From Thermoanaerobaculia bacterium (GTDB taxonomy: Bacteria; Acidobacteriota; Thermoanaerobaculia; Gp7-AA8), in the NCBI GenBank assembly GCA_035630815.1, contig DASQJY010000028.1:264187-328186 (forward strand): DNA of 64,000 nt, read 5' to 3'. Under the pieces are notes generated by a model that ran no database searches, was not told the DNA's origin, and was given only the letters and a program-made list of their open reading frames with translations. The stretch's first letter is position 1. Every line of letters starts with the position of its first letter. Positions 29,401 through 64,000 of the stretch are shown piece by piece. Made by a program: the position numbers and the translations under genes.

Positions 29401-29411
29401 TACTTCTTCCC

Positions 29412-31507: not shown

Positions 31508-31533
31508 TCGTCTTGGAAAACGGTTACAGATCG

Positions 31534-31666
31534 CTGAGTACCGCTCCTCGGAATGCTACGCCTTCACGACACATTTACGCAACACGCACTCCACGGCAGC
31601 GGCGACGAACACTGGAGATCCACCCGCGTCTCACCGTCCATTAGATTTCTTTCCGAAGGTACTCAG
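31534..31666 (-). ncRNA. candidate structured 5' leader (riboswitch-like closing stem) upstream of the ECF cassette
   Basis: On the minus strand, cugaguacc (31666-31658) pairs perfectly with gguacucag (31542-31534). It is extended by cuucgg/ccgagg and encloses ~110 nt. No known riboswitch core was recognised. Confidence 0.25.
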
Positions 31667-31668
31667 AT

Positions 31669-32370: not shown

Positions 32371-32663
32371 TACAGCACCTTGATTGTCACTGAGCAGTAG
32401 TCGCAGTCGAAGCTGCGCGACTGCTCGCCGCAGGATGTACAGCGGAGGCGGCTGCCGTACTCCGTCGCCCGGCATTTCGGGCACGTGGCGAGGAGGTCCA
32501 AGGCGTTCGTCGCTCCGCAATGCGGGCAGTCGATGTAGCCCTTCCGCATGAGCGCCGCCCCACGGGAGAGCTTCATGACTTTGCATGCGAAGACAATGAC
32601 GTACACCGGGCTTGCGAGCAGGTAGAGCAGAGCAAGGCCGATCCATCGAAGTGTCTTATCCAC
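32370..32663 (-). CDS. membrane-anchored multi-zinc-ribbon protein
   Basis: The GTG at 32663 overlaps the ATPase stop by 8 nt. TM LRWIGLALLYLLASPVYVIVFA, then CPHCG...CPKC...CTSCG...CDYC. Confidence 0.5.
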   Translation of the reverse strand: MDKTLRWIGLALLYLLASPVYVIVFACKVMKLSRGAALMRKGYIDCPHCGATNALDLLATCPKCRATEYGSRLRCTSCGEQSRSFDCDYCSVTIKVL

Positions 32664-38145: not shown

Positions 38146-38221
38146 TGGAGCGGGCGACGGGATTCGAACCCGCGACCAAGAGCTTGGGAAGCTCCTACTC
38201 TACCAACTGAGCTACGCCCGC
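38146..38221 (-). tRNA. tRNA-Gly (anticodon CCC), 76 nt with encoded CCA
   Basis: Minus-strand sequence GCGGGCG-TA-GCTC-AGTTGGTA-GAGT-A-GGAGC-TTCCCAA-GCTCT-TGGTC-GCGGG-TTCGAAT-CCCGT-CGCCCGC-T-CCA folds as a canonical cloverleaf. Anticodon loop TT-CCC-AA. Confidence 0.95.
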
Positions 38222-48837: not shown

Positions 48838-50763
48838 TCACTTGAGGTCGATGCATTGCAATCTACGGCAGAGGATGTCGCGATAGAACTTTCTCGCCGC
48901 CGAGTGTTCCTCAGCCTCGATATACCCCTGGAGGGCAGTGCTGATCGATGCGAAAGTCATTGTTGGCTTTTGTCCGCGGAGCTTCGCGAGCTCGACGTAC
49001 GTCTTCGCGGCTGCCGCCAGCGCCACGTCGGGTCGCGCCGAGATCGTATCGACGGCATAGTCGGCGTCCGCTCCCGCAGCGCCTCCTCCTATCCCGCCAA
49101 ACAGGGCGCCGCCGATCCCACGGCCCGTATGGCCGACACGCGAGCCATAACCGAAATGCGAGTACGTGTCCTGCAGCGCATGCAGGTACGTTCCAATGTC
49201 GGACGCCTGGCCGGTAGCGACGGCGGTCGCCCTGAGGGTTGCCAGCCTCTCCGTTGAGACGAAGTGAAAATCGCGCCGGGCTTGGAAATGCGTCGGAACC
49301 GTCGGGCTTCGTTCACCGTGGTCAGGTGCCTCGGTCGCAGCCGCGATCGCGGCCGCTTCCGCGGGCGTATACCCCGCGGCGATGGCCAGGAGGTTCGTGA
49401 GATCCCGATGAAAGTCGGTGCGGTACAAGCCGGTACTGTCGTAGAAGTTCACCGGCTGGTTCAGCACGTACGAGTAACGGTTCCACGTCTGTGGCCGGAA
49501 AGGGTTCGCAGCGGCGCGGTCGATCGAGAGGAAGCGCCCCCAGTTCGGGTTGTAGAAGCGGGCGTGCATGTAATCGAGGTAGGCGCTGTGCTCTCCGCCC
49601 CAGGTCTCGATGCCGTCCCGTTCGTGGCCCGTAAAATGTGCGGTCTGTTCGCGCTCGTAGCCGCGCGCGCGTTCCTGCTGGAGGCTCGTGATCTCCACGC
49701 CGAACGGAAAGTAGTCGTGCGTCGAGATCTGGCCGCCGCCGGCGTTGGTGACCAGGCGCGGCGTCCCGAGGTGGTCCAGGTGGTAGTGGCGCCGGCCGCC
49801 CTCGGCCGTTTCGCGCTGCGACGCGATCAGGCGCTGGCCGTCGTGATAGTCGTCCTCGCGCCAGAGGAAGTAATCCAACTCGACGCTTTCGTACTCGCGC
49901 ACTTTCCGGCCGCCGAGATCCCGCAGCGTCCAGCGCCAGAGACCGCCGTCGTACCCGCTCCCGGGGATGACGGCGAGCCGTTCGTCGCCTGGCGTGTAGA
50001 CGTACGTGGAATTGGACGCGTCATCGAAGTTCATCATGCCGAGCTGGTCGTAGGCGTAGCTGCTGACAGGAGAGTCGATGAGATTGCCCGCGTCGTCGTA
50101 CGCCACGCCGAGGGAGGGGGAAAGACGGTTCGTGGAGACCTCTACCGGGAGGTTGATGGTCACGCCGTCGTTGACGAGCTTCGTGAGATTTCCTACCGGA
50201 TCGTATTCATACGATTCCTGATGGGACGCGAGGCCGCTGTAGACCTTCGCGGTGGCCAGCCTGCCGATCCGGTCGTACGTGAACTGGTCCGTCTTCCCCA
50301 GCGTGTCGGGCCCGATGGACCAGACGTTGCCGGAGCCGTCGTAGGTGTAGGTGCCGCTCGTGAGGACGTCGACGCCGTTCGTGGTCAACAACGGCATCGT
50401 GGCCTCAGCGAGCGGAGCGCGGCCCCCGGCTTCACCGGCCGCGCGGCGGGCGGCGAGACCGACCACCATCCGCTGAACGCTGCGCACTTCCGCGCGCTGG
50501 CCGAGCGCGGCCGCCGCTTCGGCGGTCATCCGGACGACGAGACGCGCGCCGCTGCGCTGCTCGACCCGGGCCCCGTAGGCGGCGGGGTCGAACGCCGGCA
50601 CGCCTTTGCGGGCCGGCTGCAGCACGATGAGATAGACGTCCTGCTGGGCGGCAAAGGCGTCGGCGGCAGGCTGCTGCGCCACGAGCGTGGACTGCGCAGC
50701 AAGGACAACGACGACTGCAAGAATGCGTGACGCCGCGTGCATGATCGAATGACGCGTTTTCAT
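48838..50763 (-). CDS. secreted RHS-repeat-associated core protein with His-rich C-terminal (putative effector) domain
   Basis: The ATG at 50763 forms an ATGA overlap. Signal MKTRHSIMHAASRILAVVVVLAAQS. YD repeats (YTYDGSGNV, FTYDRIGRL, YEYDPVGNL). Core YHLDHLGTPRLVT...THDYFPFGVEI...ARFYNPNWGRFLSIDR...NRYSYVLNQPVNFYDSTGL. ~190-aa tail with HFVS...YLHALQDTYSHFGYGSRVGH. Confidence 0.9.
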   Translation of the reverse strand: MKTRHSIMHAASRILAVVVVLAAQSTLVAQQPAADAFAAQQDVYLIVLQPARKGVPAFDPAAYGARVEQRSGARLVVRMTAEAAAALGQRAEVRSVQRMVVGLAARRAAGEAGGRAPLAEATMPLLTTNGVDVLTSGTYTYDGSGNVWSIGPDTLGKTDQFTYDRIGRLATAKVYSGLASHQESYEYDPVGNLTKLVNDGVTINLPVEVSTNRLSPSLGVAYDDAGNLIDSPVSSYAYDQLGMMNFDDASNSTYVYTPGDERLAVIPGSGYDGGLWRWTLRDLGGRKVREYESVELDYFLWREDDYHDGQRLIASQRETAEGGRRHYHLDHLGTPRLVTNAGGGQISTHDYFPFGVEITSLQQERARGYEREQTAHFTGHERDGIETWGGEHSAYLDYMHARFYNPNWGRFLSIDRAAANPFRPQTWNRYSYVLNQPVNFYDSTGLYRTDFHRDLTNLLAIAAGYTPAEAAAIAAATEAPDHGERSPTVPTHFQARRDFHFVSTERLATLRATAVATGQASDIGTYLHALQDTYSHFGYGSRVGHTGRGIGGALFGGIGGGAAGADADYAVDTISARPDVALAAAAKTYVELAKLRGQKPTMTFASISTALQGYIEAEEHSAARKFYRDILCRRLQCIDLK

Positions 50764-53700
50764 TGAGTTCTCTCCCGAAGCTGCTCGATGGGCGTGAAGC
50801 GGAACCAGATCGGGACCGGGTCCGCGTACGCCGAAACCGCGAGCTCGTGTGCCTGCAGCGCGTTGTCCATCCAGGTGCGAAGGGCCGTGATGTGGGCGGC
50901 CCGGATGAAGCCGTCCGCGGCGGGTGGCGCCGTTCCGGCCGGGAGGATCGCCGCCCAGGTCAACTCGCCCAGGCCGGCGGCGGCGCGGATTGCGTTGACA
51001 GCGGAGAGGAGCTGGTCGAAGTGCCGGTAGTCGACTCGCGTGTCCGCTCCCGCCGAAAGGTATGCGATCAGCGTGGCGAGATCGTTGTTGCTGGGGGCGG
51101 ACTGGGCGCCGATGGCGGTCAGGGCGCGGACGCGATAGACGCACGCCGAGCCCGTACCGCAGGTGCTGTCGACGTACGAAAGCGACGACGTCGTGGCCAC
51201 GGCGCTGAACGTGCCGCCATTGCGGCGCTCGAGCCGGTAATTGGCGGCGCCGGGCGTCGCGGTCCATTGAACGAAGACGCTGGACGTGCCTTGACGCGTG
51301 GCTACGAGCGACGTCGGCGGGTCGAGCGGTTGCTCGGGGGTGAGGACCGCATGGGCCGATTCGACCTTGCCGCAGTTGGACGTCACGATCACCCAGAACG
51401 ACTGCTGCGCCGTGATCGGCGGGGTCGTGAAGGAGGACGAGGTGGCACCAGGGATCAGCGACTCCTCTTCGGACGACGTCGTGCCGTACCACTGGTACGA
51501 GAACGGGCCGGTGCCGGACGCGGTCACGGTGAGGTTTTTGGTGAGTCCGTGCGTCACCGGACCGGAGGACGGGCCGGAGGTAATCGTCGGCGCGGTACAG
51601 GTGCGCGAGAAACCGCTGTATGTGATCGCCTCGGGGCGTGCCAGTCCGTCGGGATCGGGAACGACCTGCTCGAGCACTCCGTTGGCGTGCGAGGTCCAGA
51701 GCCGCAGTCCGTTGGCGGCATGGTCGAGCGTGGCGAGGGACGCGCGTGCCGTGAAGGCACCGGTGGAGGAAAAGTCGCCGGCGGTCAGGCTCCTCGGTCC
51801 CCGGTCGTCATACGCGGTGCGTGTTCCGTCGTACGGAGCCTCTCCGCATGGGACGGTCGTGCAGACGGGATAGATGTGGTCGACCGGCCGGTCGAGCGCG
51901 TCGTACGCAAAGGCCTGCTCGAATTTCTGCAGATGGATTGCCGAATCGGGATCGTCGACGTACACCTGCCTGTCGACGGACGTCTCTTTGCGCGTAACCC
52001 GGCCGGCGCCGTCGCCGTAGGTCAGCGTTTCCGCGACCTTGATCAGACCGACGGTGGGAGACGGGTTGTAGCGGACGGCGGTGCGAAGCTTGCCGAGGCC
52101 GCGGTCAGACGCCGAGAGGTTGTCCTCGTAGAGCAGCTCTTTCATCGGCCGCCAGTGGTTCGCGGTGCAGGGATCGGCTACGAGCATGTTGCGAACGTCC
52201 ATCCGGCGGAGCCGCTCGGCGGCGTCGAACGTGAAATTGGTGTCGTAACGGCAGTCGGCGGTGCGCTTCTGCCTGGCGTGCCCGCGGGCATCGTAGAAGT
52301 AGGTGATGGTGCCGTTCTCGGGATTCGTTTCGGAGGTCAGGAGTCCGGCGCCGTCGTAGACGAACGAACGGGGCGCGGCGGACGACTTGTTTACGGAAGT
52401 GAGCCGGTTGCCGGCGTCGTACTCGTACGAAGTGGTGGCGACGTTCGCGCCCTCGAAATCTTCAATGACGGAGGTGAGCCGGCCGAGGAAATCGGACGTC
52501 TCCGCGGTCTTGACCCACCCCCACGTCGTCGCGGCCAGGGCGAGCATGGACGAACGGATGGTCCGGCGCGAGCTCGGATATGCGAAGGTGAACGACGTGT
52601 CGTCGGGCTGCTGTACCTCCAGCAGCCGTCCGGTCGTGTCGTAAATCCACTTCGTCTGCTTCGTGCCGGCGGGCATGGTCTCCCGCGCGCCTGTAGCCGC
52701 GGGAACGACGACCGACACGGCCGACTTGTGACCCTTCGCGTACTCGGTCCAGGTGGCGGCCCACTCGTCGGAATCGGCCGTAGAAAGGATGCGCTGCCGC
52801 TGCTGCATCACCCGGCCGAACAGGTCGTAGTGCGCGCGCGACTCGGCCATCGCGTTGACGCTGCAATTCGTCACGCCATTGGCGCAGTGCCGCGACGTGA
52901 CGCTCGGACCGGTGGTGCCGCTCGCTTCCGTGTATACGTGCTCCGTCCAGGCGCGTCCGGCGGGCCTCACGCCTGTCAAGCGGCCGAGCTGGTCGTACTT
53001 CAGCACCGTCTCCAGGCCCGCGGTGTCGCGCGTGCTGGACGGCAACCCCGAGGGAGGATCGATGGTCGCATCGAGAGCCTTGAAATTCATGCCCTCATAG
53101 CGCGTGGAGGCCAACGAGCCATATTGATAGGTGTGGTGAATGCGGTATTGCGGCGCGACGTTGCTCAGGTTTCCACTGCACGTGGCGAACCCCGCGCCGA
53201 GCGACTGCAGGTCACCGCCGTAGTACTCTTCCTGGGATACGTTTCCGTCGGTACTGCCGCCGCTCGCGTCCTGGTCCTTGAACACGGCGAGCAGGTCGAA
53301 TTCCGAGGCCGTTGCACCGCGAAGAGCACGTCTTCGCAGTAAACGGCCGTTCAGGGGATCGAAGCAGGCCTCCGTGCGGGACCGCGACAGGACCCCGGCG
53401 GTCGCGTGGACGTCCTTCGTCTCCACGAAGTCGTAGTTTTCCGTGAGCCACGACTCGCTCGGGTCGATGATGCGCACGCCATCGCTGGCCGTGGTGGGGT
53501 TGTAGTTCGTCGTGGTCACGCGTGTGACCGGGCTGTCCGATGAGCTGGTGGTGGTGGTCCGGTAATGACCGAGACCGTCGAAACCGGAGTAAACCTCGGT
53601 CGTCTCGTTTCCGTCCTCGAAGACCGTCAACCGCGATTTGAGGCGGCGGTTGTCGTCCAGGGCGGCGGCGGTCATGTCGTATTCGTACGTGACGTACGTG

Positions 53701-55289
53701 AGCCGCTTCTTGCCGTCGGGGAGCAGCGTGCGGGTGGAGATGTACATCCCCTTGTACGGGTTCGGGTCGTCCCCTGCCTGCGCCAACCGTTGCGTGAACG
53801 GCGCGCCATAATCGCGCTCGCGCGGGTAGCCGGAGGTCCAGGTCGAGAAAAAATGCGCGGTGGACGACCCGTCCGGCGCCAGGACTGTGTTGATGGACAC
53901 GGTCTTCATGTGCTCGTAGAGCGCCGAGCCGCTGTAGGTCCAGACTTCATCCGCGGCCTCGGTGGAGCCAGCGGTCTCCGTGACGTATTTCGTCCTGCGG
54001 CCTACACCCGCCGAAAAGGTCGGCGGCTGGAACTCCTCAGGCCTGACCGGATGGTGCTCGTAGTCGGGGGGAAAGCTATAGATCCGGTACTGCCATCCGT
54101 AGCGTCCCCGCGACGGCGTTCTCACTTCGATGAGACTGCCGGTGTAACTGCCGGGATTGTGGTGCGTGAGGATGTTGCTCAGTTGGTTCGGGACGGTGGT
54201 GCTGGTGACGGTGTCGCTGCGCACGCCGGCGGCGGGGGCACTCCCCTGCTGGGTCATGCCGATGTCGTAGGCCATGTCGTAGGACGAGCCGGAGGGAAGG
54301 CTCACTTTCGTGAGCAGCGGCACGAGGACCGTGGGAGACGGAAGATCCAGCGGGTCATACGGCTCCGGCCCGTCCGTCTTCTGGCGAGAGATGACCTGGT
54401 CGGAATAGGTGAAGAGGTAGTCGGCACGCTGCGAGGCGGAGCCGAAAGCAGCCAGGCTGGCCTGGCAGACTCGTTCTTTCATGAACGCGGCGTATTCGGG
54501 GCCAGTGGGGTGCAGATAGATGTAATGGGTGCGGTGTCCGTCCGCCACCTTCCAGGTCAGATAGGAGGTTCCGCACGCATCCTGATTGGCCGCCGGGATG
54601 CCGGCGGAGTTTGCGGGGTAAGGCGTGATGGTGACGGCGTTGTTGAAGCGGTCGTAGATCTTCCGGAGCGTGCCGTCGGCGGCGAATTCCCTGATCGTGC
54701 CGTCTCCCATCTCGAGCGTGTGGCTGACGATGGCTGTACCCGATTTGTTGATGGTGTGACGCATGTACGTGCCGGTGTGGCTGTAGTTGACGTCGGAGAC
54801 GTTCAGGTTGGCCGAATGGTGCAGTTGGGGATACAAATGATGATCGCTGCCGTCAGGAGCCTGATAGACCCAGTACGGCGTCCCCAGTCGCGACTCGGTC
54901 GGTGAGACCAGCCGGCCGAGCGAGAACAACCAGCCCATGCCGGCGTTCAGCTTCCGGATCGGGACGCTCCACGTCATCCATCCCCTCTGGTATTGCTGAA
55001 AAGGGCCGTCGGCGATGCGCACTTCCCTGCTCTCGTAGTCCCAGTTGTTTCCGCCGTACACGAGCTTGAACCCGTACGACAGGTTTCCTCCGGCCACATA
55101 GGTCGGCCCGACCGGGAGCGCGACGTTCAGGTTGCCGTTGAAGAGATTGATCACGTCGACGTCGCTGACGGCATACGCCTGTTGCGGCTTGACGCCTCTC
55201 TCGTTATTGGCGTGCTGTTGTGCCGCGGTGCGGTGGGCGAGCGACGCCAGGCCGCAGAAGAGGAATGCGATGAGCCTTGCGCGGCTCAT
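50760..55289 (-). CDS. 1509-aa secreted YD-repeat protein with C-terminal Ig-like and fibronectin-III domains
   Basis: Signal MSRARLIAFLFCGLASLAHRTAAQQ. YD repeats (YDQLGRLTGV, WIYDTTGRLLEV, YEYDAGNRLTSV, FVYDGAGLLTSE, YFYDARGH). GTGPFSYQWYG Ig-like domain. PPTSLVATRQGTSSVFVQWTATPGAANYRLERR...YRVRAL FN3 domain. Confidence 0.9.
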   Translation of the reverse strand: MSRARLIAFLFCGLASLAHRTAAQQHANNERGVKPQQAYAVSDVDVINLFNGNLNVALPVGPTYVAGGNLSYGFKLVYGGNNWDYESREVRIADGPFQQYQRGWMTWSVPIRKLNAGMGWLFSLGRLVSPTESRLGTPYWVYQAPDGSDHHLYPQLHHSANLNVSDVNYSHTGTYMRHTINKSGTAIVSHTLEMGDGTIREFAADGTLRKIYDRFNNAVTITPYPANSAGIPAANQDACGTSYLTWKVADGHRTHYIYLHPTGPEYAAFMKERVCQASLAAFGSASQRADYLFTYSDQVISRQKTDGPEPYDPLDLPSPTVLVPLLTKVSLPSGSSYDMAYDIGMTQQGSAPAAGVRSDTVTSTTVPNQLSNILTHHNPGSYTGSLIEVRTPSRGRYGWQYRIYSFPPDYEHHPVRPEEFQPPTFSAGVGRRTKYVTETAGSTEAADEVWTYSGSALYEHMKTVSINTVLAPDGSSTAHFFSTWTSGYPRERDYGAPFTQRLAQAGDDPNPYKGMYISTRTLLPDGKKRLTYVTYEYDMTAAALDDNRRLKSRLTVFEDGNETTEVYSGFDGLGHYRTTTTSSSDSPVTRVTTTNYNPTTASDGVRIIDPSESWLTENYDFVETKDVHATAGVLSRSRTEACFDPLNGRLLRRRALRGATASEFDLLAVFKDQDASGGSTDGNVSQEEYYGGDLQSLGAGFATCSGNLSNVAPQYRIHHTYQYGSLASTRYEGMNFKALDATIDPPSGLPSSTRDTAGLETVLKYDQLGRLTGVRPAGRAWTEHVYTEASGTTGPSVTSRHCANGVTNCSVNAMAESRAHYDLFGRVMQQRQRILSTADSDEWAATWTEYAKGHKSAVSVVVPAATGARETMPAGTKQTKWIYDTTGRLLEVQQPDDTSFTFAYPSSRRTIRSSMLALAATTWGWVKTAETSDFLGRLTSVIEDFEGANVATTSYEYDAGNRLTSVNKSSAAPRSFVYDGAGLLTSETNPENGTITYFYDARGHARQKRTADCRYDTNFTFDAAERLRRMDVRNMLVADPCTANHWRPMKELLYEDNLSASDRGLGKLRTAVRYNPSPTVGLIKVAETLTYGDGAGRVTRKETSVDRQVYVDDPDSAIHLQKFEQAFAYDALDRPVDHIYPVCTTVPCGEAPYDGTRTAYDDRGPRSLTAGDFSSTGAFTARASLATLDHAANGLRLWTSHANGVLEQVVPDPDGLARPEAITYSGFSRTCTAPTITSGPSSGPVTHGLTKNLTVTASGTGPFSYQWYGTTSSEEESLIPGATSSSFTTPPITAQQSFWVIVTSNCGKVESAHAVLTPEQPLDPPTSLVATRQGTSSVFVQWTATPGAANYRLERRNGGTFSAVATTSSLSYVDSTCGTGSACVYRVRALTAIGAQSAPSNNDLATLIAYLSAGADTRVDYRHFDQLLSAVNAIRAAAGLGELTWAAILPAGTAPPAADGFIRAAHITALRTWMDNALQAHELAVSAYADPVPIWFRFTPIEQLRERTQ

Positions 55290-55996
55290 TCGTGCACCGC
55301 CGTTGCAGCTACATCCATGAGGTAAGGATCGACGGCGATGAGGACGTCGTGCGGACGGAAGGCGACCGGCGGCGCCGATTCACCGGAAACGGGCCGCATG
55401 AGGGCGGCGCCCGGCTGCACCGTTCCGAAAGCAACGTTGCCATCCATGCCGGAGCCGTCCATGAGCGACACCTTCCATGCGCCCTGGTCGGGACGGACCC
55501 AGATCGCCTCGACCCATTGCGCGTCGAAGTCGAAGGCGTCGAATTCCTGCCCGGAATTCCGCTTCATCCGGAGCGCCTGCGCGGGACGCACGTGCAACGG
55601 AGTGCCGGGCGGTGACGCAACCACGAAGTCGCCGCTCGAATAATCGACAGCGGCATAGATCGAGGTCGCGGCGACGGGCCGCTGCAGGTCGAGACGGGCC
55701 TCGCCGCGCTCGTCGCTCTGCAGCGTCACTGAGACGTTCATTGTGCGCATGGTGTAATTGCGCGCCTCGCGCACAATGCCGAAGACGATTACCTGCGCAC
55801 CAGGTGTAATGCCGGTAATGACGACCGCCCCCTGCTCGAATGCAATCGCAGGTGGACCGATCTGCTCCGCGGCGCGCGCGGACTGCGCGCAGAGCGCCAC
55901 CGGGATGCCGGTCAACACTGCAGTCAACACGACGCGTCCTGCAAGCCGGCGGCGATGACGAAGCCGTTCCATGATGAATCCGATTCGACCGTTCAT
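55286..55996 (-). CDS. secreted hypothetical protein
   Basis: Signal-like RVVLTAVLTGIPVALCAQSARA. 4-nt overlap with the downstream giant gene. Beta-rich composition. Confidence 0.6.
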   Translation of the reverse strand: MNGRIGFIMERLRHRRRLAGRVVLTAVLTGIPVALCAQSARAAEQIGPPAIAFEQGAVVITGITPGAQVIVFGIVREARNYTMRTMNVSVTLQSDERGEARLDLQRPVAATSIYAAVDYSSGDFVVASPPGTPLHVRPAQALRMKRNSGQEFDAFDFDAQWVEAIWVRPDQGAWKVSLMDGSGMDGNVAFGTVQPGAALMRPVSGESAPPVAFRPHDVLIAVDPYLMDVAATAVHE

Positions 55997-56011
55997 ATGA
56001 CTCTCCGCCGC

Positions 56012-58015
56012 CTACTGCATCGACAGCAGGACCAGGATCTCGCCCACGCCGCCCTGTAATGGCTCGAGCGCCTTGCCGATGATCGTGCCGGGCTGATGGA
56101 ACTCGCGGCCGTTGATCTGCATCGGCTCGGAGCGCATGGCCGTGCCGGAAATGTCGCTGGTCACGAGCAGGTCGCCGACACGAACGGCATGGACGCGGGC
56201 GTCTACACGGACTTTGACGCGGCCGGTGGTGGCGATCTGCTCTTTTTCGGCGCCTTCGACGCCGAGGAGGATTCCGGGAGAGGCGGAAACGACGCCGGCG
56301 ACCGTCGTGTCGTACTGGCGGGACGACGGCATGACCTCGTTGTTCCGGTCGCGGTTCAGCACCACCACGGTTCCGGCGGCCATGTCGACCGTGGCCGGGA
56401 CCCATTCGGCGAGATCCTGGTAGACCGCACCGATCACCTTCGCGCCGGTGATGTTTCCGGTGGCGATGATGTTGCCGGTGGTGGTGAGGTTGCCGGTGGC
56501 GGTGATGTTCCCCGTGGTCAGGAGGTTCCCGACCACGTGCAGTTTCGCGGAGGGGGTGGCGGTGCCGATGCCGATGTCGCCCGTCTGCGTCACGCGAAGG
56601 CGCTCGTTGGCCGGACCGGTGCCGCCTGTGTACATCCGGACGTTGCCGGTGGTGACGTTGCCGGAGCTCAGCGAAAGGCCACCGGTCTCCAATGAGGTCA
56701 GGGCAACCGTTCCGGCGGCGTGCGCGGAATTCGGCTGGTTCGTATACGTGGCGCCGGTTGCGGTCAGCGAGCCGCCGGTCCCTACGGCGCCGGAGTTGAG
56801 GATGAAGGACGTGTACGACGCCGGATTGGTGTTCTGCATCGCGATGTTGCCGAGCACGTGCAGCTTCTGCTGCGGGGTGGTGGTGCCGATGCCGATGGTG
56901 CCCGAAAAGAAGTTCGTGTCGTCGGGGCCGTTCTGATAGATGCCGAAGTCATTGATTGCTTCGGCGTCGGCGATGTACACGCCATAGCCGGTATTGACGG
57001 TGCCGCCACCCGACTCGACCGCGGCGTGAACCGCGGTCGCCGTGGTCACGGTGCCGGGGAAGCCGTAGTAGTTGCCGGCGTGGAAGTACCCGCCGGTGGC
57101 CCAGGTCACTGTGCCCGGTCCGTAGTTCCACGCGTCCATCTGGCCGGCGATGAGGCCGCCGGTGTTCGTCACGCCGAGGGGAACGGTGTTGACGGCGTTG
57201 ACGAACAGCCCCGCATCGTCCTGCCTGATGGTCGCGTCCACCACAGCGTGCTGGTAGACGAACATCGCCCGTCCGTTGTCGGAGTAATTGTAGGTGGAGA
57301 GCTTGCCGTGATTGCTCGTCGCGCCGATGCTGACGTTTCCGTCGGCGAGAATGCGCATGCGCTCGGCGGAGCTCGTACCGAAGATCATCGGCCCGCTGGC
57401 GAAGTTCCAGAGCTGGAGCGCGTTCGCCCCGCCCGTCGCTCCGGTGGAGGCGGAACCGGTGCTGGAGAGCTTCGCCACCTGTGTTCCGCCCGCGAAGAAG
57501 CGCACCTGCCGCGACGCCTCGGCGGTGGCCGTCCCGGCGTTGGCGTTGTTGATCTCGATCCCGGTCGCGGCGTCCTGGTCGCGGCGCAGGATCGTGTAGC
57601 CGTCGCCACGGACCTTGAACAGCGCGGCGTCGCTCGCGCTCAGGACGGTGAAGCCGGACGCAGACGTCTGCGTGCCGAGCTTCAGGAAGACATCCGGAGT
57701 GGCGGTGGCGGCTCGCAGGAGCACACCCGAAGCGGGTGCGGTGGCATTGTCGAGCAGGAGGTCGCCGTGATTGCCGGTGACGTCGGCCTGCGCGCCCACT
57801 GCCGACGGCCGGTTGCGGCCGGACTGCAGCACTTTCAATGGACGATCGCCCTGCGGCACCTCCGGCGCCGCGGCTGGCTCCTCGGCCTCTTCGCGCCCTG
57901 GCATTTCGATCACCGGGATCGGCGGAGGCGCGGAGGGATCGACCACGGGATCCTGGGCCAGGAGTACGGGAGCGGCAAGGCAAAGTGCGACCAGTGCGAC
58001 ACGAAATGTCGGCAT
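56012..58015 (-). CDS. secreted tail-fibre-like repeat protein
   Basis: The ATG at 58015 (AAGGA upstream) gives signal MPTFRVALVALCLAAPVLLAQ. Repeated IGTTTPQQKLHVLGNI / IGTATPSAKLHVVGNL motifs. Pentameric TGN repeats (TTGNITATGNLTTTGNIIATGNITG). C-terminal DLAEWVP...GDLLVTS...IIGKALEPL domain. Confidence 0.75.
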   Translation of the reverse strand: MPTFRVALVALCLAAPVLLAQDPVVDPSAPPPIPVIEMPGREEAEEPAAAPEVPQGDRPLKVLQSGRNRPSAVGAQADVTGNHGDLLLDNATAPASGVLLRAATATPDVFLKLGTQTSASGFTVLSASDAALFKVRGDGYTILRRDQDAATGIEINNANAGTATAEASRQVRFFAGGTQVAKLSSTGSASTGATGGANALQLWNFASGPMIFGTSSAERMRILADGNVSIGATSNHGKLSTYNYSDNGRAMFVYQHAVVDATIRQDDAGLFVNAVNTVPLGVTNTGGLIAGQMDAWNYGPGTVTWATGGYFHAGNYYGFPGTVTTATAVHAAVESGGGTVNTGYGVYIADAEAINDFGIYQNGPDDTNFFSGTIGIGTTTPQQKLHVLGNIAMQNTNPASYTSFILNSGAVGTGGSLTATGATYTNQPNSAHAAGTVALTSLETGGLSLSSGNVTTGNVRMYTGGTGPANERLRVTQTGDIGIGTATPSAKLHVVGNLLTTGNITATGNLTTTGNIIATGNITGAKVIGAVYQDLAEWVPATVDMAAGTVVVLNRDRNNEVMPSSRQYDTTVAGVVSASPGILLGVEGAEKEQIATTGRVKVRVDARVHAVRVGDLLVTSDISGTAMRSEPMQINGREFHQPGTIIGKALEPLQGGVGEILVLLSMQ

Positions 58016-58113
58016 ATCGATTCCTTTTCTCGAACGGGTGCGCCGGCGGCGACGATGCGCCTGCGCGTTGCGGATCTTTTGTTGGTTGTTGGACTGACTC
58101 GTTTCGTAGAGAC

Positions 58114-59256
58114 TCAGAAACGAGCGGCGTATTGCCATGCGCTCTTTGCGAGCGCGGACGCGGAGGTGCCGGGATGCGCTTCGGCAAACGCGGCGAGCCG
58201 CCGCGCACCCTCGTCGAAGAGCCCTTCACGCATGCAGATCAGCCCCTGTTCGAGGTCGGAGCCGGAGCGGCGCGCTGCCTGGAGCTCCGCCAGCGCCTCC
58301 GCGGTCAACAACCGGAATCGCGCCGGCGGATCGGTCTCCGGCGGCAGCACTTTCTCGCCCGACCCGGAGCGGAGAACCACCTGCCACTGGTACGTCACGC
58401 CGCGTTTCAGGGCGGTGGGGCTGGTCCAGGCGGTCCCCTTCAACGCGGGGCTCTCCAGCACGCGGTTGTAGCGGCTGTCGAATACCTGCACCACGCCCAT
58501 CTGCGTGCTGTCGTCACGGGACCAGCGGAATGCCGGCCGGTCCGCCTCGAGCACGACACCCACGGGGCCGAGCAGCGCGGCGGTGCCCGGCGCGACCGCC
58601 CCCGCCGATCGCTGACCGCCCGCTGTCCCCTGGAGCGAAGCGACGAGATTCGCGCTGGCGAGCGTGCCGCGCTGGAGCGCCGTCGCCACCCGGCGCAGCG
58701 ACGGTGGGAGTTGCTCCAGGGGATTGCGATCGGACGCCGTGGCAGGAGCGGGTGCGAGTGCGGGTGGACTGTCTCGCGGAAGCGGCACAGTGGCCGGAGC
58801 ACGACGGACGGATTCGACGCCGCGATGCGGCTCCGGTTCAGGCGATGCGGTGTTCCAGACGAGTGCGGCACCTCCGGCGACAAAGGCCGCGATCGCGGCC
58901 GCGATGGCGAAGCCGCGGAAGCGGGCACGAACGGCGACGACACGCACGGCTTGCCCGAGATCCGCGGCCTCGGCACGGCACATCGCGCAGACTTCCAGAT
59001 GGTCGCCAGCCGCCGTTCGTTCGTCCGCGTCGCCGAGACCGTCCACGTATGCCGAGAGCTCTTCGAACGAAAGGTGGTCGCCGTCCAGCGTTTCCAGTGC
59101 CTGCCTCACCGCGACGCGGGCCATGGCGGAGTCGGCGACCGTGCGGCGGCACGAGTTGCAGCGGCCGAGGTGGTCGTCGGTCGCCAGCAGCTCCTGCCCT
59201 GAGAGCTTGCCGAGCCTGAAGCGCTCGAGGAGCCCGGCGTCGGGGTGATTCGTCAT
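58114..59256 (-). CDS. membrane-spanning anti-sigma factor with two zf-HC2-like motifs
   Basis: HLGRCNSCRR and HLEVCAMCRAEAADL. TM FAIAAAIAAFVAGGAALVW. ~220-aa extracytoplasmic domain. 4-nt overlap with the sigma gene. Confidence 0.7.
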   Translation of the reverse strand: MTNHPDAGLLERFRLGKLSGQELLATDDHLGRCNSCRRTVADSAMARVAVRQALETLDGDHLSFEELSAYVDGLGDADERTAAGDHLEVCAMCRAEAADLGQAVRVVAVRARFRGFAIAAAIAAFVAGGAALVWNTASPEPEPHRGVESVRRAPATVPLPRDSPPALAPAPATASDRNPLEQLPPSLRRVATALQRGTLASANLVASLQGTAGGQRSAGAVAPGTAALLGPVGVVLEADRPAFRWSRDDSTQMGVVQVFDSRYNRVLESPALKGTAWTSPTALKRGVTYQWQVVLRSGSGEKVLPPETDPPARFRLLTAEALAELQAARRSGSDLEQGLICMREGLFDEGARRLAAFAEAHPGTSASALAKSAWQYAARF

Positions 59257-60287
59257 TTCGACCTTCCGTAATCCGGCACGCGTGTCTTCCGCAGGAGCCG
59301 CGACCGGGCGGCCCGCCTGAGATTGATGACCTGTTGTCTCGTCACTCCAAGCCGCGCGGCGATGAAGAGGTCGTCCGCGGGAAGGCGGGGCCAGATGAAC
59401 GCGAATTCGTCGTCGCTCATCTCCAGCGCGCGCGCGATGTCGCGGACCGTCGCGACGGCGGCGACGGGGAGGAGGTGAGTGACCGACTCACCGGCGGAAT
59501 CGCGAGCCTGCAGCAGCAGCGCAACTCGCTGGCGAAGCGGCAGTTCCAGGATCTCGTTCCACAACCTGCGCAGGTCCTGGAGCTGGATCAGCTCCTCGGC
59601 CGGATGGGTGACGGCCGAGCTGAGCTCGACCGCCTCGTCGAGCGACTGCGGGGTCTCCTTGCGCGGAATCCCGGCCGCGGCCGCAAGCACCGTGACCACG
59701 TCTTCGACGGTTCGCGGCGCACCGGCGGCGGTCAGTAGGGAACGAAGGTCGGGACGGAGATCGCCGCGCCCTCCGCCGAAGGCGAGCGGCGGCATCGGTG
59801 AGTGCTCATCTTGAGGATTGTCCTTCCACGCCGCAAGTCCACAGACCATCACGCCGCGGTAGGTCCAGACGGCCAGGGCGGGATCGTGATTCAGGAAGTA
59901 GAGCGTCCGGTTCCTCAGCTTCGCGCGGAGCGGAAAGTGCTTGCGGACAAAATCCTCGAACGCGTTGAAGGTAACGGTCGCAACGTAGTCGGGGAAGCTC
60001 TCGATCGGCGGGTCGTCGATCCCGAGCAGGCGGCGGAAGCGGCTCACGAGCCGGACGATGACGTCGTGCCGCAGGTCGGCGACGTACTCGACATCCATGC
60101 GTGCCCTCCTGAAGCGCGCCGACAGGATCTTTTCGATCCGGTCGTATGCATGCTCGGCCAGGATCGCCGCGACCGCGGCCTCACGCTCGGTGTCGGACCG
60201 CGCAGTCAGGACGCGGTCGAGCATCGGATCATTCAGCCGCCTTTCCGCCCTCGGGTCCAACGACTGCTCCTTCTGCAGAGAGAACAC
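59253..60287 (-). CDS. ECF-like sigma-70-family factor, atypically long (up to 344 aa; the listed start is GTG and may be further downstream)
   Basis: Region-2-like ADLRHDVIVRLV...YVATVTFNAFEDFVRKHFP. Region-4-like ILELPLRQRVALLLQ ... IAARLGVTRQQVINLRRAARSRL. Long inserts lie between and within the regions. Confidence 0.65.
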   Translation of the reverse strand: MFSLQKEQSLDPRAERRLNDPMLDRVLTARSDTEREAAVAAILAEHAYDRIEKILSARFRRARMDVEYVADLRHDVIVRLVSRFRRLLGIDDPPIESFPDYVATVTFNAFEDFVRKHFPLRAKLRNRTLYFLNHDPALAVWTYRGVMVCGLAAWKDNPQDEHSPMPPLAFGGGRGDLRPDLRSLLTAAGAPRTVEDVVTVLAAAAGIPRKETPQSLDEAVELSSAVTHPAEELIQLQDLRRLWNEILELPLRQRVALLLQARDSAGESVTHLLPVAAVATVRDIARALEMSDDEFAFIWPRLPADDLFIAARLGVTRQQVINLRRAARSRLLRKTRVPDYGRSK

Positions 60288-60337
60288 TCATTCATGGAGA
60301 CGCAGACCGCGAGCCGATATTGCCATGCCAGGCCGGC

Positions 60338-63300
60338 TCACTGCGAAGTTGTGATCAGGACGAACGGCGACCAGTAGTAAGGATGGCTGAACCGGGGGTT
60401 CCGCAGCAGGGCGAGTTGCGCCTCGCGGAGGGCGAATGGGTAATCGGCGCCGCTCAGGCTCGCCTGCCGGTGAAACGCGATCATGAGTTGCGCGGTGCTC
60501 GCCGAGTCGACGGCCCATTGGCTGACGACCGTGTTCCTGCAGCCGGCCACCATCAGCGCCCACGACATTCCGACGACGCCTTCGCCGGGCGTCAGTCCTC
60601 CGTCGGCGGACTCGCACGCGGACAGGACGACGAGGTCGGCCCCGAGGTCGAGCTCCATCATCTCGCGCGCCTCGAGGAGACCGTCGTCCGTGTCGGAGGC
60701 GCCGAGGACGACGGCGGAGTACATCGGGGACGCGTCGTCGATGATCCCGTGCGTGGCGAAATGGAGCACGGGATACTCCGCGGCGAGCTTCTTCGCGGTC
60801 GTTTCGGTCGCCTGCGCACCGACGAGGGCGCGGCTCGCCGGGCCGTACATCTTCGCGATGGCGAACACCTCCGCGCGCGCGTCGGGAAGCGGGCCCAGAC
60901 TCGCGCCGCGACTCACCGCACGCGTCGACACATCAGACCCGGGCGGGAGGAGCGGATCGGCCAGGGCGAGCAAAGCCGGCGCTGTCGCGGTCACGCTCCT
61001 CGGCCGCTGCCGGCGTTCGTGCCGCAGCAACGCCAGTGAAGGGGCGTAGGCAATGGCGATCCGCTCGATCAGATGCTCGCCGCCGGCCGATTGCAGTGCC
61101 TGAAACGGCAGGCGCCAGAGCATCCCGTCCGGGACGATGAAGAGGCGGCGCTTCGAGCCGATGCGCGAGGCAAACGGCGCAACGAGCAGGTCGTACAACG
61201 AGCGGGCGGATTCGCGATAGTCGAGATTCCGCTCTTCGATCCGGCCGACGAAATGACGGATGCGCTCCTCGAGCTCCACCTTCGGCAGCGCGATCCGATG
61301 GACGGCCACGTCGACGTCGTCTCCCGAGCGTTCGACGTAGAACGCGAACGTCTCCTGGTCCTGGACGGAAAAGGTCAGGAGCGCTTCGGCGGGATCCGGG
61401 AGCAGGCGATGCACGTCGCCGACGATGACTTCGGGACTGATGGCAACGGCCCCCCGAGGCTCCGGGCCGCCGCTCTCCATGCGCGAAAGAAAGACCTGCT
61501 GCTCGATGCGCTGCTCGGCCAGGCGCTCGCGGAGCACGGCGGTCGCCGAGCCGTCGCCGGACGCGAGGAGGCTCCGGTTCAGATCGGCGATGGCGCGGTT
61601 CAGCGCTGCGTATCGTTCCCGGTCGGCGGCGCTCATCGAAGGAAGCCGGTCGACCTGGCCACGAGCCATCGCCGTGGCCAGCGCCCGTGCGCGAAACCGC
61701 TCCGCGACCACGAGCGCGTCGCGCGGACGCCCCTGTCCGACGAGCAGGGCAACCAGGTCGCGATACGGCTGCGCCTTGTTGCGCATGAACGCGGACAGGG
61801 TCAACTCGTCCGCCCCGACCCCCGCGCGCTTCGCCTCGATCAACCCGATCGACGATTCGAGTGCCAGGATCGCCTCCGGGAGCCGGCCAGCGGCACGGAG
61901 GGCATGTCCCAGCGTCGCCCGAACCACCCAGGAGGGGTCGTAGCGATACAGCTGCGCCTTGCCGAACGACTGGCGAAGGAGGACGTCCGCGCTGGTCGCC
62001 GTGGCGAGGGCCTCCTCGGTACGCCCCTGGAGCAGATGAATGCGCGCGTGCAGTTGCAGCATGTCCGCCTTGAAATACTGCTCGTCGCTCAGGCGCACGA
62101 GCTCGAGCGCGGCGAGGATCTCCACCTCGGCTTCGCCATAACGGTGCGCGTCCGCCAGCATCTCCGCGAGCTCGAAGCGAGTCGACGCCACCGCCACCTG
62201 GTCCGGTTCACCGGGACCTGCCCGCGCCAACAACTTCCGCATCAGCGCCGCGGCTGCATCGTGGTTCCCCAGGGCACGTTCGGCGACGGCAAGGTCGGAC
62301 GTCGCGACCGTGATGAATTCGCGGTCGCCCAGCCGCTCCGAGCACCGCAACGCCTCGGCGGCGTAATGCCGTGTCGCCTGCGCGTCCTGAAGGTCGCCGA
62401 ACACCGTGTAGAGCTGAAACGCGGTCGCGCAGCGCCCTTCACGCCAATCGAACCGCTCCGCCGCCGACGCCAGCGCGGACGCTGTCATCACGGCGTCGCG
62501 ATACGAGCCGCGGTAGACCAGCAGGTTCCCTCGCATGTAGAGGGCCTTCATGGCGGGGCGCGGATCATCGATCACGTTCAGCAGGGCGGCCGCAGCGTCG
62601 TACAGGGCCATTGCGGCTTCATGGCGGCCGTTCTGCCACTCGGCCGTTCCGGACATGAGCAACGCGGCGGCGCGCACGTCAGCAATGCCGGTTCCCTCCG
62701 CATATCTCCGTCCTTCCGCCGCCAGGGCGGCTCCGCGCTCCGGCTCTCCCGTGTGCAACAGATGCGCAACCCGCATCCGAAGGCTGAGGATCGCGGCGGC
62801 CGGCAGACCGGCGCTGCGCGCGACGGAGCTCACGACGTCCAGCGTGGGTGCAGTCGTCGCGACAAATATTGCGGTGTCCACCTCGTCAACCAGCGCCACG
62901 AGGAAGGTCTCGAGATCCACATACGGCGCACAGGCAGCGATTCCCTGCGGAGTGACATCGCCCGCGGCGACCAGCCGGCGGGCGAGCACGCGCTCCTCGA
63001 CCATGATGTTCCGCAGCCGCCAATCGCCGCCGGAACGCTGCGCCTCGAGGTGCCAGCGGTCAGGGAAACGGATCGGCGTGCGGGAGGTGCCTCGCGCGGC
63101 TGCCGTGGCGTGGACGGTCACGCGCAGCGTCATCGCGGTGTCGGTCGCTGATTCGACCGACACCTCATGGGCGCGGATCGAGATGCAGTCGTACGTCTCG
63201 AGGTCTTTCCGGAGGAATTGCCAGTCCCGCGAAACCGTCGCCTCGGCGGTGCTCAGGGAAGCGAGAGCATCGATGTCACCTGACCGCAGGGCGCGGACGA

Positions 63301-63397
63301 ACCGCTCCGCTGTCAGCTCTGGGGTCAGCTCCGCATCCGCCGGCGCAGCATTCGCCGTCAGCGCAAACACGCCGAATACCACGAGGAAGCGGAGCAT
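60338..63397 (-). CDS. secreted CHAT-domain (caspase-like) protease with NTF2-like N-domain and TPR array
   Basis: Signal MLRFLVVFGVFALTANAAPADA. Central TPR-like repeats. C-terminal LHFATHGIIDD (His) ... ADLVVLSACESADG (Cys) ... GMSWALMVAGCRNTVVSQW is typical of CHAT. Confidence 0.92.
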   Translation of the reverse strand: MLRFLVVFGVFALTANAAPADAELTPELTAERFVRALRSGDIDALASLSTAEATVSRDWQFLRKDLETYDCISIRAHEVSVESATDTAMTLRVTVHATAAARGTSRTPIRFPDRWHLEAQRSGGDWRLRNIMVEERVLARRLVAAGDVTPQGIAACAPYVDLETFLVALVDEVDTAIFVATTAPTLDVVSSVARSAGLPAAAILSLRMRVAHLLHTGEPERGAALAAEGRRYAEGTGIADVRAAALLMSGTAEWQNGRHEAAMALYDAAAALLNVIDDPRPAMKALYMRGNLLVYRGSYRDAVMTASALASAAERFDWREGRCATAFQLYTVFGDLQDAQATRHYAAEALRCSERLGDREFITVATSDLAVAERALGNHDAAAALMRKLLARAGPGEPDQVAVASTRFELAEMLADAHRYGEAEVEILAALELVRLSDEQYFKADMLQLHARIHLLQGRTEEALATATSADVLLRQSFGKAQLYRYDPSWVVRATLGHALRAAGRLPEAILALESSIGLIEAKRAGVGADELTLSAFMRNKAQPYRDLVALLVGQGRPRDALVVAERFRARALATAMARGQVDRLPSMSAADRERYAALNRAIADLNRSLLASGDGSATAVLRERLAEQRIEQQVFLSRMESGGPEPRGAVAISPEVIVGDVHRLLPDPAEALLTFSVQDQETFAFYVERSGDDVDVAVHRIALPKVELEERIRHFVGRIEERNLDYRESARSLYDLLVAPFASRIGSKRRLFIVPDGMLWRLPFQALQSAGGEHLIERIAIAYAPSLALLRHERRQRPRSVTATAPALLALADPLLPPGSDVSTRAVSRGASLGPLPDARAEVFAIAKMYGPASRALVGAQATETTAKKLAAEYPVLHFATHGIIDDASPMYSAVVLGASDTDDGLLEAREMMELDLGADLVVLSACESADGGLTPGEGVVGMSWALMVAGCRNTVVSQWAVDSASTAQLMIAFHRQASLSGADYPFALREAQLALLRNPRFSHPYYWSPFVLITTSQ

Positions 63398-64000
63398 GGG
63401 GCCAGTCTAGCGGCATTTGGTGCGCGGTGACCGCAGTCGCCGCTCGTTCCGCGCGTCCCCGCCCACCCAGGTCCCTCGCGGGCGGGGAGCGCAGGATGCG
63501 AGCCGCAGCGGCACACGCGTTAAACGGTGTGCAGTGCGGTGACTGCGGTGAGGGTGTCTTAAAACCATTTGCTTCACTCCTTGGATGAGGAGAGCGAGAG
63601 AGGATGTGTCGAGAGCTTCGAGCGGATTACACGACACAATATCTGTTACCGCCGGCGTTGGAGGATAAGTACAACTTGCGTGTTCGAAACGTATGAAGGC
63701 GCAGCACTTGCGCCCTGAGTACCGCTTCGCTCACTCACCAACCGGGAGAAAAACTACCGCATGAATTGGCCACCTTCCCATGCCACACAAACGGGGATCA
63801 GGAACTGTCGCAACTCGACGGCGCGTGCACTCTGCATGGCCGTCCTCGTCGTCCTCGGGCTGAATCTCAGCTCGGGAGAGGCGTAGCGCAGTCCTGGAGC
63901 CTCACCCTGGCCCAGCGTCAGGCGTACCTGAACTACTACGCGCCGTTGATCCTGAAACGCGGCGACGAAAACAACGCAAGCAGGGGCGTGACTGGCTCAC

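Follow-up and report, generated by a model that had tools for sequence, protein, structure and literature searches.

Seven open reading frames (ORFs), G1 to G7, lie one behind the other between positions 48838 and 63397 on the minus strand of the window, that is, the whole stretch of 64,000 nucleotides (nt) of contig DASQJY010000028.1 analysed here, from a Thermoanaerobaculia bacterium of the phylum Acidobacteriota. We regard it as fairly probable that two modules, each conserved independently of the other, stand in tandem in this region. The first is a signalling trio composed of an exported CHAT protease (G1), a divergent sigma factor (G2) and a membrane-anchored anti-sigma factor (G3). The second is a cassette of secreted proteins, namely a phage-tail-fibre-like protein (G4), a protein of an unannotated family (G5) and two proteins with YD repeats (G6 and G7), and it would be the local output of the trio. 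The trio was found in many Acidobacteriota beside varying neighbours, the cassette recurs in soil metagenomes, and a candidate promoter motif stands before G2 and, in a weaker form, before G4. On the best reading of these data the cassette has been recruited recurrently as one of many outputs of the trio, and the seven genes are not a co-evolved unit.

The signalling trio

The gene structure was taken from the list of ORFs and their translations, with the junctions read directly, and the gene caller applied to the source contig gave the identical seven genes, including the 335-aa G2 and the 667-aa G4. GC content is about 66% in this part of the window. The G1-G2 gap is 50 or 77 nt, depending on whether a GTG or a TTG codon starts G2, the G3-G4 gap is 98 nt and the G4-G5 gap 15 nt, and 4-nt ATGA overlaps join G2 to G3 (59253-59256), G5 to G6 (55286-55289) and G6 to G7 (50760-50763). 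The N-termini of G1, G4, G5, G6 and G7, read by eye, consist of a short charged stretch, a hydrophobic run and an Ala-rich cleavage-like site. Export of these five products is predicted from this reading of the sequence, and the transmembrane (TM) segment of G3 also from an AlphaFold2 (AF2) model. An earlier note on this DNA had described seven minus-strand genes with these gaps and three overlaps, and a Sec-type signal or TM segment on every product except the sigma factor. Direct reading of the sequences and the G3 model confirmed all of this, and the domains that the note had assigned to the products were borne out by hidden Markov model and profile searches. Simple scans of 46-64 kb detected no consensus promoter for sigma-70, and the terminator-like sites that they returned are all on the plus strand. 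Two promoter-like sites internal to the seven-gene run came from the motif scan presented below. Paralogues of the seven genes were not found elsewhere in the window.

G1 (60338..63397, minus strand, 1019 aa) is an exported TPR-CHAT caspase-like cysteine protease. Behind the signal-like N-terminus come an N-domain with a weak SnoaL/DUF4440-like match (DUF4440, 0.0028), TPRs (TPR_12, 1.1e-9) and a C-terminal CHAT domain recognized by Pfam at 7.5e-67 (226 bits for a cut-off of 24). Besides this domain match, G1 has the His-Cys dyad expected of a CHAT protease, His883/Cys928, and equivalents of both residues are kept in 58 of the 58 homologues that cover them. The CHAT homologues that align to the N-terminus all begin with a hydrophobic signal-like segment, and the protease is therefore predicted to be exported. 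Neither full-length G1 nor its CHAT domain alone matched a PDB sequence, and a profile built from eight homologues was discarded, being swamped by generic TPR proteins.

G2 (59253..60260, minus strand) encodes a divergent sigma-70-like factor related to the extracytoplasmic function (ECF) sigma factors, with 335 aa when counted from the TTG codon at 60260. A GTG at 60287 would extend the ORF to 59253-60287; the TTG, with an AAGGAG that ends 6 nt earlier, is more probably the start. The general sigma-70 model TIGR02937 matched at 2.3e-8 (33.8 bits), below its cut-off of 42.9, and among 25 relatives of G2, Sigma70_r2 was matched by 12 and Sigma70_r4_2 by one. Word-indexed homologues number 210. 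In the AF2 model (predicted local distance difference test, pLDDT, 87.5), a helical sigma2-like N-domain is followed by a folded insert, a beta-hairpin/helical domain at residues ~129-195, and by a sigma4-like C-domain that carries an insertion of its own. The top PDB matches of this model in Foldseek, all of weak score, are nearly all sigma factors (sigma28, sigma32, SigA, SigH, SigE, AlgU). With this insert, G2 is not made of sigma2 and sigma4 on a short linker alone, and it is outside the strict definition of ECF factors. What it shares with them is a candidate autoregulated promoter of the CGT-type -10 class, the function of which is predicted, and an anti-sigma gene that adjoins it through an ATGA overlap. 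Among PDB sequences, the sigma-family profile gave only marginal matches, at E 0.047 and in the range 0.05-0.15, of the inserted middle domain (59676-59874, minus strand, in G2) to the N-terminal HARE-HTH domain of the RNA polymerase delta subunit.

G3 (58114..59256, minus strand, 380 aa) is a single-pass anti-sigma factor of the ZAS type. Its zf-HC2 match reaches 22.2 bits, which equals the Pfam cut-off, and NCBIfam anti-sigma models match weakly. Two HxxxCxxC units stand in tandem, H29/C33/C36 and H86/C90/C93 (58966-59172, minus strand), and both are common to the eight full-length homologues that were aligned. The tandem of conserved units suggests that G3 contains a duplicated anti-sigma domain. 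In the AF2 model (pLDDT 78.7), the anti-sigma helices are followed by a TM segment at ~113-136 and a disordered Pro-rich linker at ~134-175. The periplasmic part then forms an FN3-like sandwich (227-316) and ends in four TPR-like helices (319-379); Foldseek retrieved FN3 domains at E ~1e-3. An N-terminal helical HxxxCxxC domain followed by a TM segment is the arrangement of ZAS, or class I, anti-sigma factors. In agreement with this, the family profile of G3 found DdvA as its best match among PDB sequences (8rot_B, 2.4e-4), with RsiW and ChrR also retrieved.

To describe the distribution of the trio, one genome per species was scanned with a degenerate pattern, which gave 375 loci with a trio-type sigma gene in species-representative genomes. 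The best 80 of these 375 were inspected, and the seven window proteins were compared with the retained loci by tblastn; loci are called well-flanked when at least 5-6 kb is available on both sides. All 80 inspected loci belong to Acidobacteriota (Thermoanaerobaculia, Pyrinomonadaceae, Blastocatellia, Vicinamibacteria and Bryobacterales), and several genomes contributed two loci each. A G3-type gene directly follows the sigma gene in 74 of the 76 loci with room for it. Of 44 well-flanked loci, 38 have a CHAT-TPR gene of the G1 type no more than a few kb away from the sigma gene, to either side of it and on either strand. Among the 56 loci that have a CHAT gene, a convergent downstream position is the most frequent (40), before a co-directional downstream one (9) and an upstream one (7). 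The same trio was also seen in independent metagenome contigs by means of called genes and Pfam. Its neighbours vary and include subtilases, trypsin-like proteases, OmpA, cytochromes and transporters. Among the closest relatives, L006 and L171 keep the CHAT-sigma-anti-sigma gene order of the window. In L171 (67% identical), where a CHAT gene precedes the sigma gene like G1 in the window, a further TPR and CHAT pair in convergent orientation (2699-5653, minus strand) was called as two ORFs of 497 and 444 aa, either a split gene or a frameshift. L008/L002 (64% identical) has no nearby CHAT gene. There the gene after the sigma gene (10717-12690, plus strand) encodes a 657-aa protein with faint TPR matches that resembles G3 in the zinc-finger region only, and a promoter-like site points divergently at genes for a 292-aa protein and a 6023-aa surface protein.

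A candidate promoter motif before sigma, anti-sigma and fibre-like genes

Counts of k-mers and dyads upstream of the sigma genes yielded the motif GGTAATA[TC]-N14-CGTC, with GGTAATAY-N14-CGTCTTC as its fuller form. A GGTAA element separated by 17 nt from CGTC is the geometry of ECF promoters. We trained a position weight matrix (PWM) on 17 sites, the one in the G1-G2 gap of the window among them, counted hits of at least 14 bits and linked every hit to the long ORF that comes next after it. The PWM found 69 hits in 2.86 Mb, versus 10 in locally shuffled sequence, and about 42 of the 69 stand directly upstream of sigma, anti-sigma or fibre-like genes. Eleven precede sigma genes, in loci of the Thermoanaerobaculia type, and in about 10 loci besides the window 60-90 nt separate the site from the sigma gene that it precedes. 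About 27 precede anti-sigma genes in Pyrinomonadaceae and Blastocatellia, some 20 of these being outside the training set, and four precede fibre-like homologues of G4. The remaining hits are found before neighbouring genes whose products are secreted or belong to the envelope, among them trypsin-like and S8 proteases, OmpA, a galactose-oxidase-like protein, multihaem cytochrome-TPR proteins, MacB/FtsX, HlyD, a DsbA/SurA-like protein, a beta-propeller lactonase and CARDB proteins. The motif may thus be the promoter read by sigma factors of the G2 type, and the trio would then be a general device for envelope signalling whose local outputs vary.

Two further sequence features were noted in these loci. 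In L016, L021, L041, L056, L062, L063 and L080, a sigma-70-like sequence, GTTGCGAGGAAACTTCATTCTGCTGTATATCTTCAAAC, is located 60-150 nt upstream of the sigma genes. It is followed in these Pyrinomonadaceae and Blastocatellia loci by a conserved hairpin, GAAACGA...TCGTTTC, and by GGAGGTT, and the sigma-type motif is placed before the anti-sigma gene instead. In L023, two identical sites, GGTAATACTGTCCCGCCCTTTTCATCTTC, at 10183 and 11820 (plus strand) precede first a gene for a trypsin-like protease and then an OmpA-family gene.

In the window, the candidate promoter of the G1-G2 gap (60296..60324, minus strand) reads GGCAATAT-N14-CGTCTCC, scores 24.1 bits and lies about 32 nt before the TTG start of G2. 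A site in the gap between the CHAT and sigma genes is kept in the closest relatives, with 16.1 bits in L006 and 19.5 bits in L171, both having AGTC in place of CGTC. The second candidate (58108..58136, minus strand), GGCAATAC-N14-AGTCTCT, is weaker at 15.8 bits. It overlaps the stop codon of G3 and is 92 nt upstream of the ATG of G4. At the rate found in shuffled sequence, the chance of a hit of at least 14 bits on the correct strand within 150 nt before G4 is ~5e-4. The matching site ahead of the fibre-like gene of L061 reaches 26.3 bits at a distance of 103 nt, and those ahead of the fibre-like genes of L039 and L003 score 19.8 and 17.4 bits. Upstream of G1 the window offers 603 nt, in which no such motif was found even at a weaker threshold, and CHAT genes are generally without it. 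This absence fits a sensor component that is made independently of the activity of the sigma factor.

The fibre, G5 and YD/RHS cassette

G4 (56012..58015, minus strand, ATG at 58015, 667 aa) is predicted to be a secreted protein resembling phage tail fibres and the MAT fibres of Bdellovibrio. Its beta-helix repeat region is homologous to known fibres: PDB searches retrieved the Bd2133 fibre 8OND (2.1e-9), 8OML (4.3e-5) and 8OL4, and tail-fibre family PHROG 18345 matched at 1.5e-6. That G4 forms a trimer is predicted by analogy with these. An 18/36-nt tandem repeat at 56446-56531 encodes TGNI(T/I)A hexapeptides just before a conserved C-terminal domain, which is 50-62% identical across many loci. 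This domain is weakly similar to the Peptidase_G2 intramolecular chaperone (3.7e-4; 20.4 bits, below the cut-off of 25), and G4 gave no match to the S74 chaperone. G5 (55286..55996, minus strand, 236 aa) is predicted to be exported and has no match in Pfam, NCBIfam or PHROG. A full HMMER pass collected its family, of about 200 aa, in 1166 representative clusters at E <= 1e-3 and 526 at <= 1e-10. Its gene is translationally coupled to G6 by the ATGA overlap, and the same 4-nt overlap is repeated in L093.

G6 (50760..55289, minus strand, 1509 aa) is the larger of the two secreted YD proteins, with matches to RHS_repeat (9e-10) and YD_repeat_2x (4.5e-8); towards the C-terminus come Ig_7 and FN3-like domains, and the end is helical. 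It also matched TEN_YD-shell faintly and, in PDB, the Rhs-family protein 8h8a (7.2e-6); domain-model searches detected neither an RHS core nor a toxin domain. The smaller protein, G7 (48838..50763, minus strand, 641 aa), carries an RHS-associated core (Rhs_assc_core, TIGR03696, 6.3e-14; 52.2 bits versus a cut-off of 32.5) with weak matches to the TcC core (YenC2, TccC2). The C-terminus taken alone matched DUF6765 at 7.2e-7, above the cut-off. Its matches in PDB were low-complexity ones to designed proteins only and were set aside. G7 and its two L006 paralogues align up to the core and are wholly divergent after it, which is a polymorphic-toxin signature. With YD repeats, core and variable C-terminus, G7 has the features by which RHS/YD polymorphic toxins are recognized. 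There is no immunity ORF behind G7, because the gene that follows its stop at 48838 is convergent (46991-48787, plus strand), and in L006 there is no gene between the two G7-like genes.

The alignment of the wide G5 family was too divergent for a locus scan, and the cassette was surveyed with a narrower G5 alignment in soil metagenomes, which returned 77 loci. In 47 of the 51 loci with room, no more than 400 nt separate the G5-like gene from the start of a G6-like gene, and a G7-like gene comes next in 9 of the 11 with at least 6.5 kb downstream. Upstream, usually directly, a fibre with the same highly conserved C-terminus is encoded in about 16 of 73 loci.

Some features of the surroundings may be mentioned here. 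On the source contig past the end of the window (L091, 274-5398), genes for a tyrosine integrase, a SIR2_2 protein and a 969-aa nSTAND1 NTPase are located within 5 kb upstream of G1. The SIR2_2 protein and the NTPase may be a defence-like pair, and since these genes and the integrase gene lie so near to G1, the cluster may border on an island. PADLOC gave no defence-system match for any of the seven proteins, and for this reason a defence-island reading of the seven genes themselves was dropped. Further away, a block at 28558-32646 (minus strand) has a GC content of 56-58% versus ~66% elsewhere. It encodes an ABC ATPase with two nucleotide-binding domains, a Replic_Relax family protein and two unannotated proteins, and it may be the remnant of a mobile element. 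A tRNA-Gly(CCC) gene is at 38146-38221.

Known systems, proposed mechanism and alternatives

The closest described system appears to be DdvA-DdvS of Myxococcus xanthus, and by analogy the trio may be seen as its two-polypeptide counterpart. DdvA is a ZAS anti-sigma factor with a periplasmic TPR-CHAT region; its authors proposed that CHAT makes the site-1 cut in the juxtamembrane linker before RseP, a step that they could not test for want of the signal (PMC11506125). A zinc-finger anti-sigma domain, a single TM segment, a periplasmic TPR-CHAT module and an ECF-type sigma factor are common to both systems. However, TPR-CHAT is fused to the anti-sigma factor in DdvA, whereas in the trio it is the separate exported G1, and G3 ends in an FN3 and TPR-like periplasmic domain of its own and has a duplicated HxxxCxxC unit. 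The His-Cys dyad of G1 is intact and invariant, while the active site of DdvA is described as incomplete. Compared with DdvS, the sigma factor of the trio is 335 aa long with an inserted middle domain. The regulon of DdvA-DdvS comprises CBASS and CRISPR, in contrast to the genes preceded by the trio motif, which encode secreted and envelope proteins, and to the absence of PADLOC matches. The hosts also differ, Myxococcus in one case and the phylum Acidobacteriota in the other. The likeness of G1 to the periplasmic domain of DdvA is one of shared Pfam family membership, with no PDB sequence match.

Other systems are more distant. CHAT- or Lon-type proteases release sigma factors in type III CRISPR systems, namely Csx29-Csx30-CASP-sigma (PMC10028731) and CalpL-CalpT-CalpS (bioRxiv 10.1101/2023.06.23.546230). 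There, as proposed for the trio, a dedicated protease (TPR-CHAT in the case of Csx29) cleaves the inhibitor that holds an ECF-like sigma factor, and transcription is turned on. Both systems work in the cytoplasm, with RNA or cyclic oligoadenylate as activators, whereas G1 is predicted to be exported; it scores 20.5 bits with the Csx29 model (cut-off 300), and no CRISPR or CBASS genes are in its context here. In DegS/RseP-RseA-sigmaE and PrsW/RasP-RsiW-sigmaW, as in the trio, a single-pass anti-sigma factor with a cytoplasmic sigma-binding domain meets an extracytoplasmic site-1 protease, which senses the signal. In these cases it is a serine protease or metalloprotease encoded elsewhere, in contrast to the trio, where the part of site-1 protease is proposed for a CHAT enzyme of caspase fold that has a TPR sensor and a gene next to the sigma pair. 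According to PMC8999054, the sigma group ECF54 has, like the trio, a conserved neighbouring CHAT protein, along with subtilase and carboxypeptidase genes, and proteolytic regulation is proposed. ECF54 is described there as having no anti-sigma factor, whereas a zf-HC2 anti-sigma gene is nearly always present in the trio, which argues against membership. The main text of the ECF classification in PMC7826278 makes no mention of CHAT.

For the cassette, RHS/YD toxins and the TcB/TcC proteins are the obvious comparison. Like these, G6 and G7 have YD repeats with the larger YD protein encoded just upstream, and in G7, as in RHS/YD polymorphic toxins, a variable C-terminal domain comes after an RHS-associated core. 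Unlike in TcB/TcC, both G6 and G7 possess signal-like N-termini, and G6 ends in Ig and FN3 domains that do not abut G7. No TcA was found here, nor SpvB or TcdB_mid domains (Pfam), nor PAAR or VgrG. The cognate immunity gene expected directly downstream of an RHS toxin is absent behind G7, and a conserved G5-family gene always precedes the large YD gene, unlike in RHS and Tc systems. G4 shares with the MAT fibres of Bdellovibrio (PMC10769870) the beta-helix repeat ERMRI..GNVGIGT..P..KLHV, and the Bd2133 and Bd1334 structures were matched. It is shorter than these, has neither an S74 chaperone nor a Bd2133-type tip at its C-terminus, and is encoded with an RHS cassette. The earlier note had not recognized the arrangement as a described system. 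For the trio, DdvA-DdvS (PMC11506125) is a precedent with the same parts.

By combining these elements, the following mechanism can be proposed. G3, through its zf-HC2 region, would hold the divergent ECF-like G2 at the membrane. The exported TPR-CHAT protease G1 would be a signal-activated site-1 protease cutting G3 on the periplasmic side, probably in the Pro-rich linker or in the FN3/TPR-like domain. Further proteolysis, in the membrane and in the cytoplasm, would set G2 free, which would steer RNA polymerase to promoters of the GGTAATAY-N14-CGTCTTC type. The site in the G1-G2 gap would provide autoregulation of G2-G3, and the weaker one at the end of G3 would switch on G4 to G7 as the local output. 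The latter would supply a trimeric phage-fibre-like adhesin, G5 as an accessory protein, the large YD/Ig protein G6 and, in G7, a small polymorphic toxin of the RHS type. The data establish the gene structure, the domain identities, the conservation of either module and the conserved position of the motif, from which recognition of the motif by G2, cleavage of G3 by G1 and dependence of G4 to G7 on G2 are inferred.

Several observations weigh against this scheme. G2 has no match in Pfam, and it missed every curated sigma model at threshold; its Foldseek scores are weak (E of at least 0.04, template modelling scores ~0.2-0.3), since its three domains cannot be superposed together as one rigid body. 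A nearby CHAT gene is missing from six of the 44 well-flanked trio loci, and the proposed cleavage of G3 by G1 draws on gene linkage and on analogy. The value of the site before G4, with its low score, lies in its position, as about 0.45 hits of at least 14 bits are expected by chance somewhere in the 64-kb window. A PWM match of 19.9 bits, GGTCATAC-N14-CGTCTTC, is found antisense inside G6 (54353-54381, plus strand); it is unexplained and could be a chance match or an antisense promoter. No motif precedes the RHS genes of L011, L012 and L015, even at the weaker threshold. The same search was negative for L075 and gave 11-bit matches at best upstream of the RHS genes of L036 and L038. Finally, G2- and G3-like genes are absent from all 15 cassette loci with at least 8 kb upstream (73 loci in total), and cassette loci show no enrichment of the motif (6 hits in 1.07 Mb).

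The earlier note had seen in the seven genes a possible self-contained, protease-gated contact or antagonism module. Gating through the sigma/anti-sigma pair is a reasonable part of this idea, but a conserved, self-contained system of seven genes does not agree with the finding of the modules apart, and we consider one dedicated, co-evolved operon very unlikely. It would account for the common strand, the short gaps, the three ATGA overlaps and the lack of a terminator-like site on the minus strand. It would also account for L061 (sigma 35% identical), where sigma, anti-sigma and CHAT genes overlapping by 4 nt, the 26.3-bit site, a fibre gene, a G5-like gene and an RHS gene are all co-directional. 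RHS genes were seen beside the trio in L006/L007, L011, L012, L015, L036, L038, L061 and L075, and they adjoin it in 7 of the 44 well-flanked genome loci (~16%). Yet their arrangement varies from locus to locus (co-directional, convergent or divergent), the neighbours are unrelated in most trio loci, and the sigma pair is missing from the cassette loci just mentioned. All six component types occur in L061, with the CHAT gene following the anti-sigma gene rather than preceding the sigma gene as in the window, but the nearest relatives (L006, L171, L008 and the P0007 contig, 62-71% sigma identity) have no co-directional fibre/RHS block. The note had also held that independent, unrelated promoters between the blocks would speak against its idea. 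Candidate promoters do seem to be present there, but they are not unrelated to the sigma factor: being of its own type, they would tie the blocks together in regulation, not separate them.

At the other extreme, a mobile fibre/RHS cassette may have landed beside an unrelated trio, the motif before G4 being a chance match. This is what one would expect from the usual independence of the cassette, the lack of motif enrichment in its loci, the 15.8-bit score with a similar-scoring antisense hit inside G6, and the integrase and SIR2-STAND pair that suggest an island-like region just beyond G1. The earlier note, too, had allowed for a merely coincidental gene order. We nevertheless find this unlikely. 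RHS or fibre genes adjoin the trio in ~16% of the well-flanked loci and in several independent arrangements, stronger sites precede the fibre-like genes of L061, L039 and L003, a hit before G4 is improbable at the shuffle rate, and the AGTC variant of the G4 site is the one used at sigma-upstream sites of the same subclade. Another possibility is that CHAT is itself an output, either an enzyme maturing the fibre or RHS cargo or an effector, and that G3 is inactivated otherwise, e.g. by redox chemistry at its zinc sites or by a generic site-1 protease. ZAS anti-sigma factors can respond to oxidants (PMC11506125), G3 has two HxxxCxxC units, and in L011, L012 and L015 the CHAT gene is downstream of the RHS genes on the same strand. 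To this explanation we give very little weight: CHAT is linked to the sigma pair whatever the neighbouring outputs, it is translationally coupled to the anti-sigma gene in L061, the sigma-type motif is generally absent upstream of CHAT genes, and the anti-sigma polypeptide DdvA itself contains this very domain. A trio that has taken up the cassette as one of its outputs therefore remains the reading that we prefer.

Acidobacteriota are abundant in soil and hard to culture, and to our knowledge next to nothing has been learned about environmental sensing in this phylum. What appears to be new here is a split, DdvA-like CHAT/anti-sigma/sigma switch with a divergent sigma factor, coupled to an uncharacterised, widespread fibre/G5/YD/RHS cassette. 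As a more tentative possibility, the trio could be an Acidobacteriota-specific, paralogously expanded signalling family with its own promoter code, which at this locus would switch on a Sec-exported delivery system not described before, with a phage-fibre-like adhesin that targets a two-part YD/RHS toxin to other cells, in contact-dependent antagonism or predation. The analysis defines the signalling trio in hundreds of Acidobacteriota genomes, often in several copies per genome, and defines a separate, widespread cassette whose G5 family is unannotated. In the trio, protease and presumed substrate are two different polypeptides, which makes the CHAT site-1 cleavage proposed for DdvA directly testable with two purified components. 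The candidate motif, for its part, would let the regulons of the trio be read from sequence alone.

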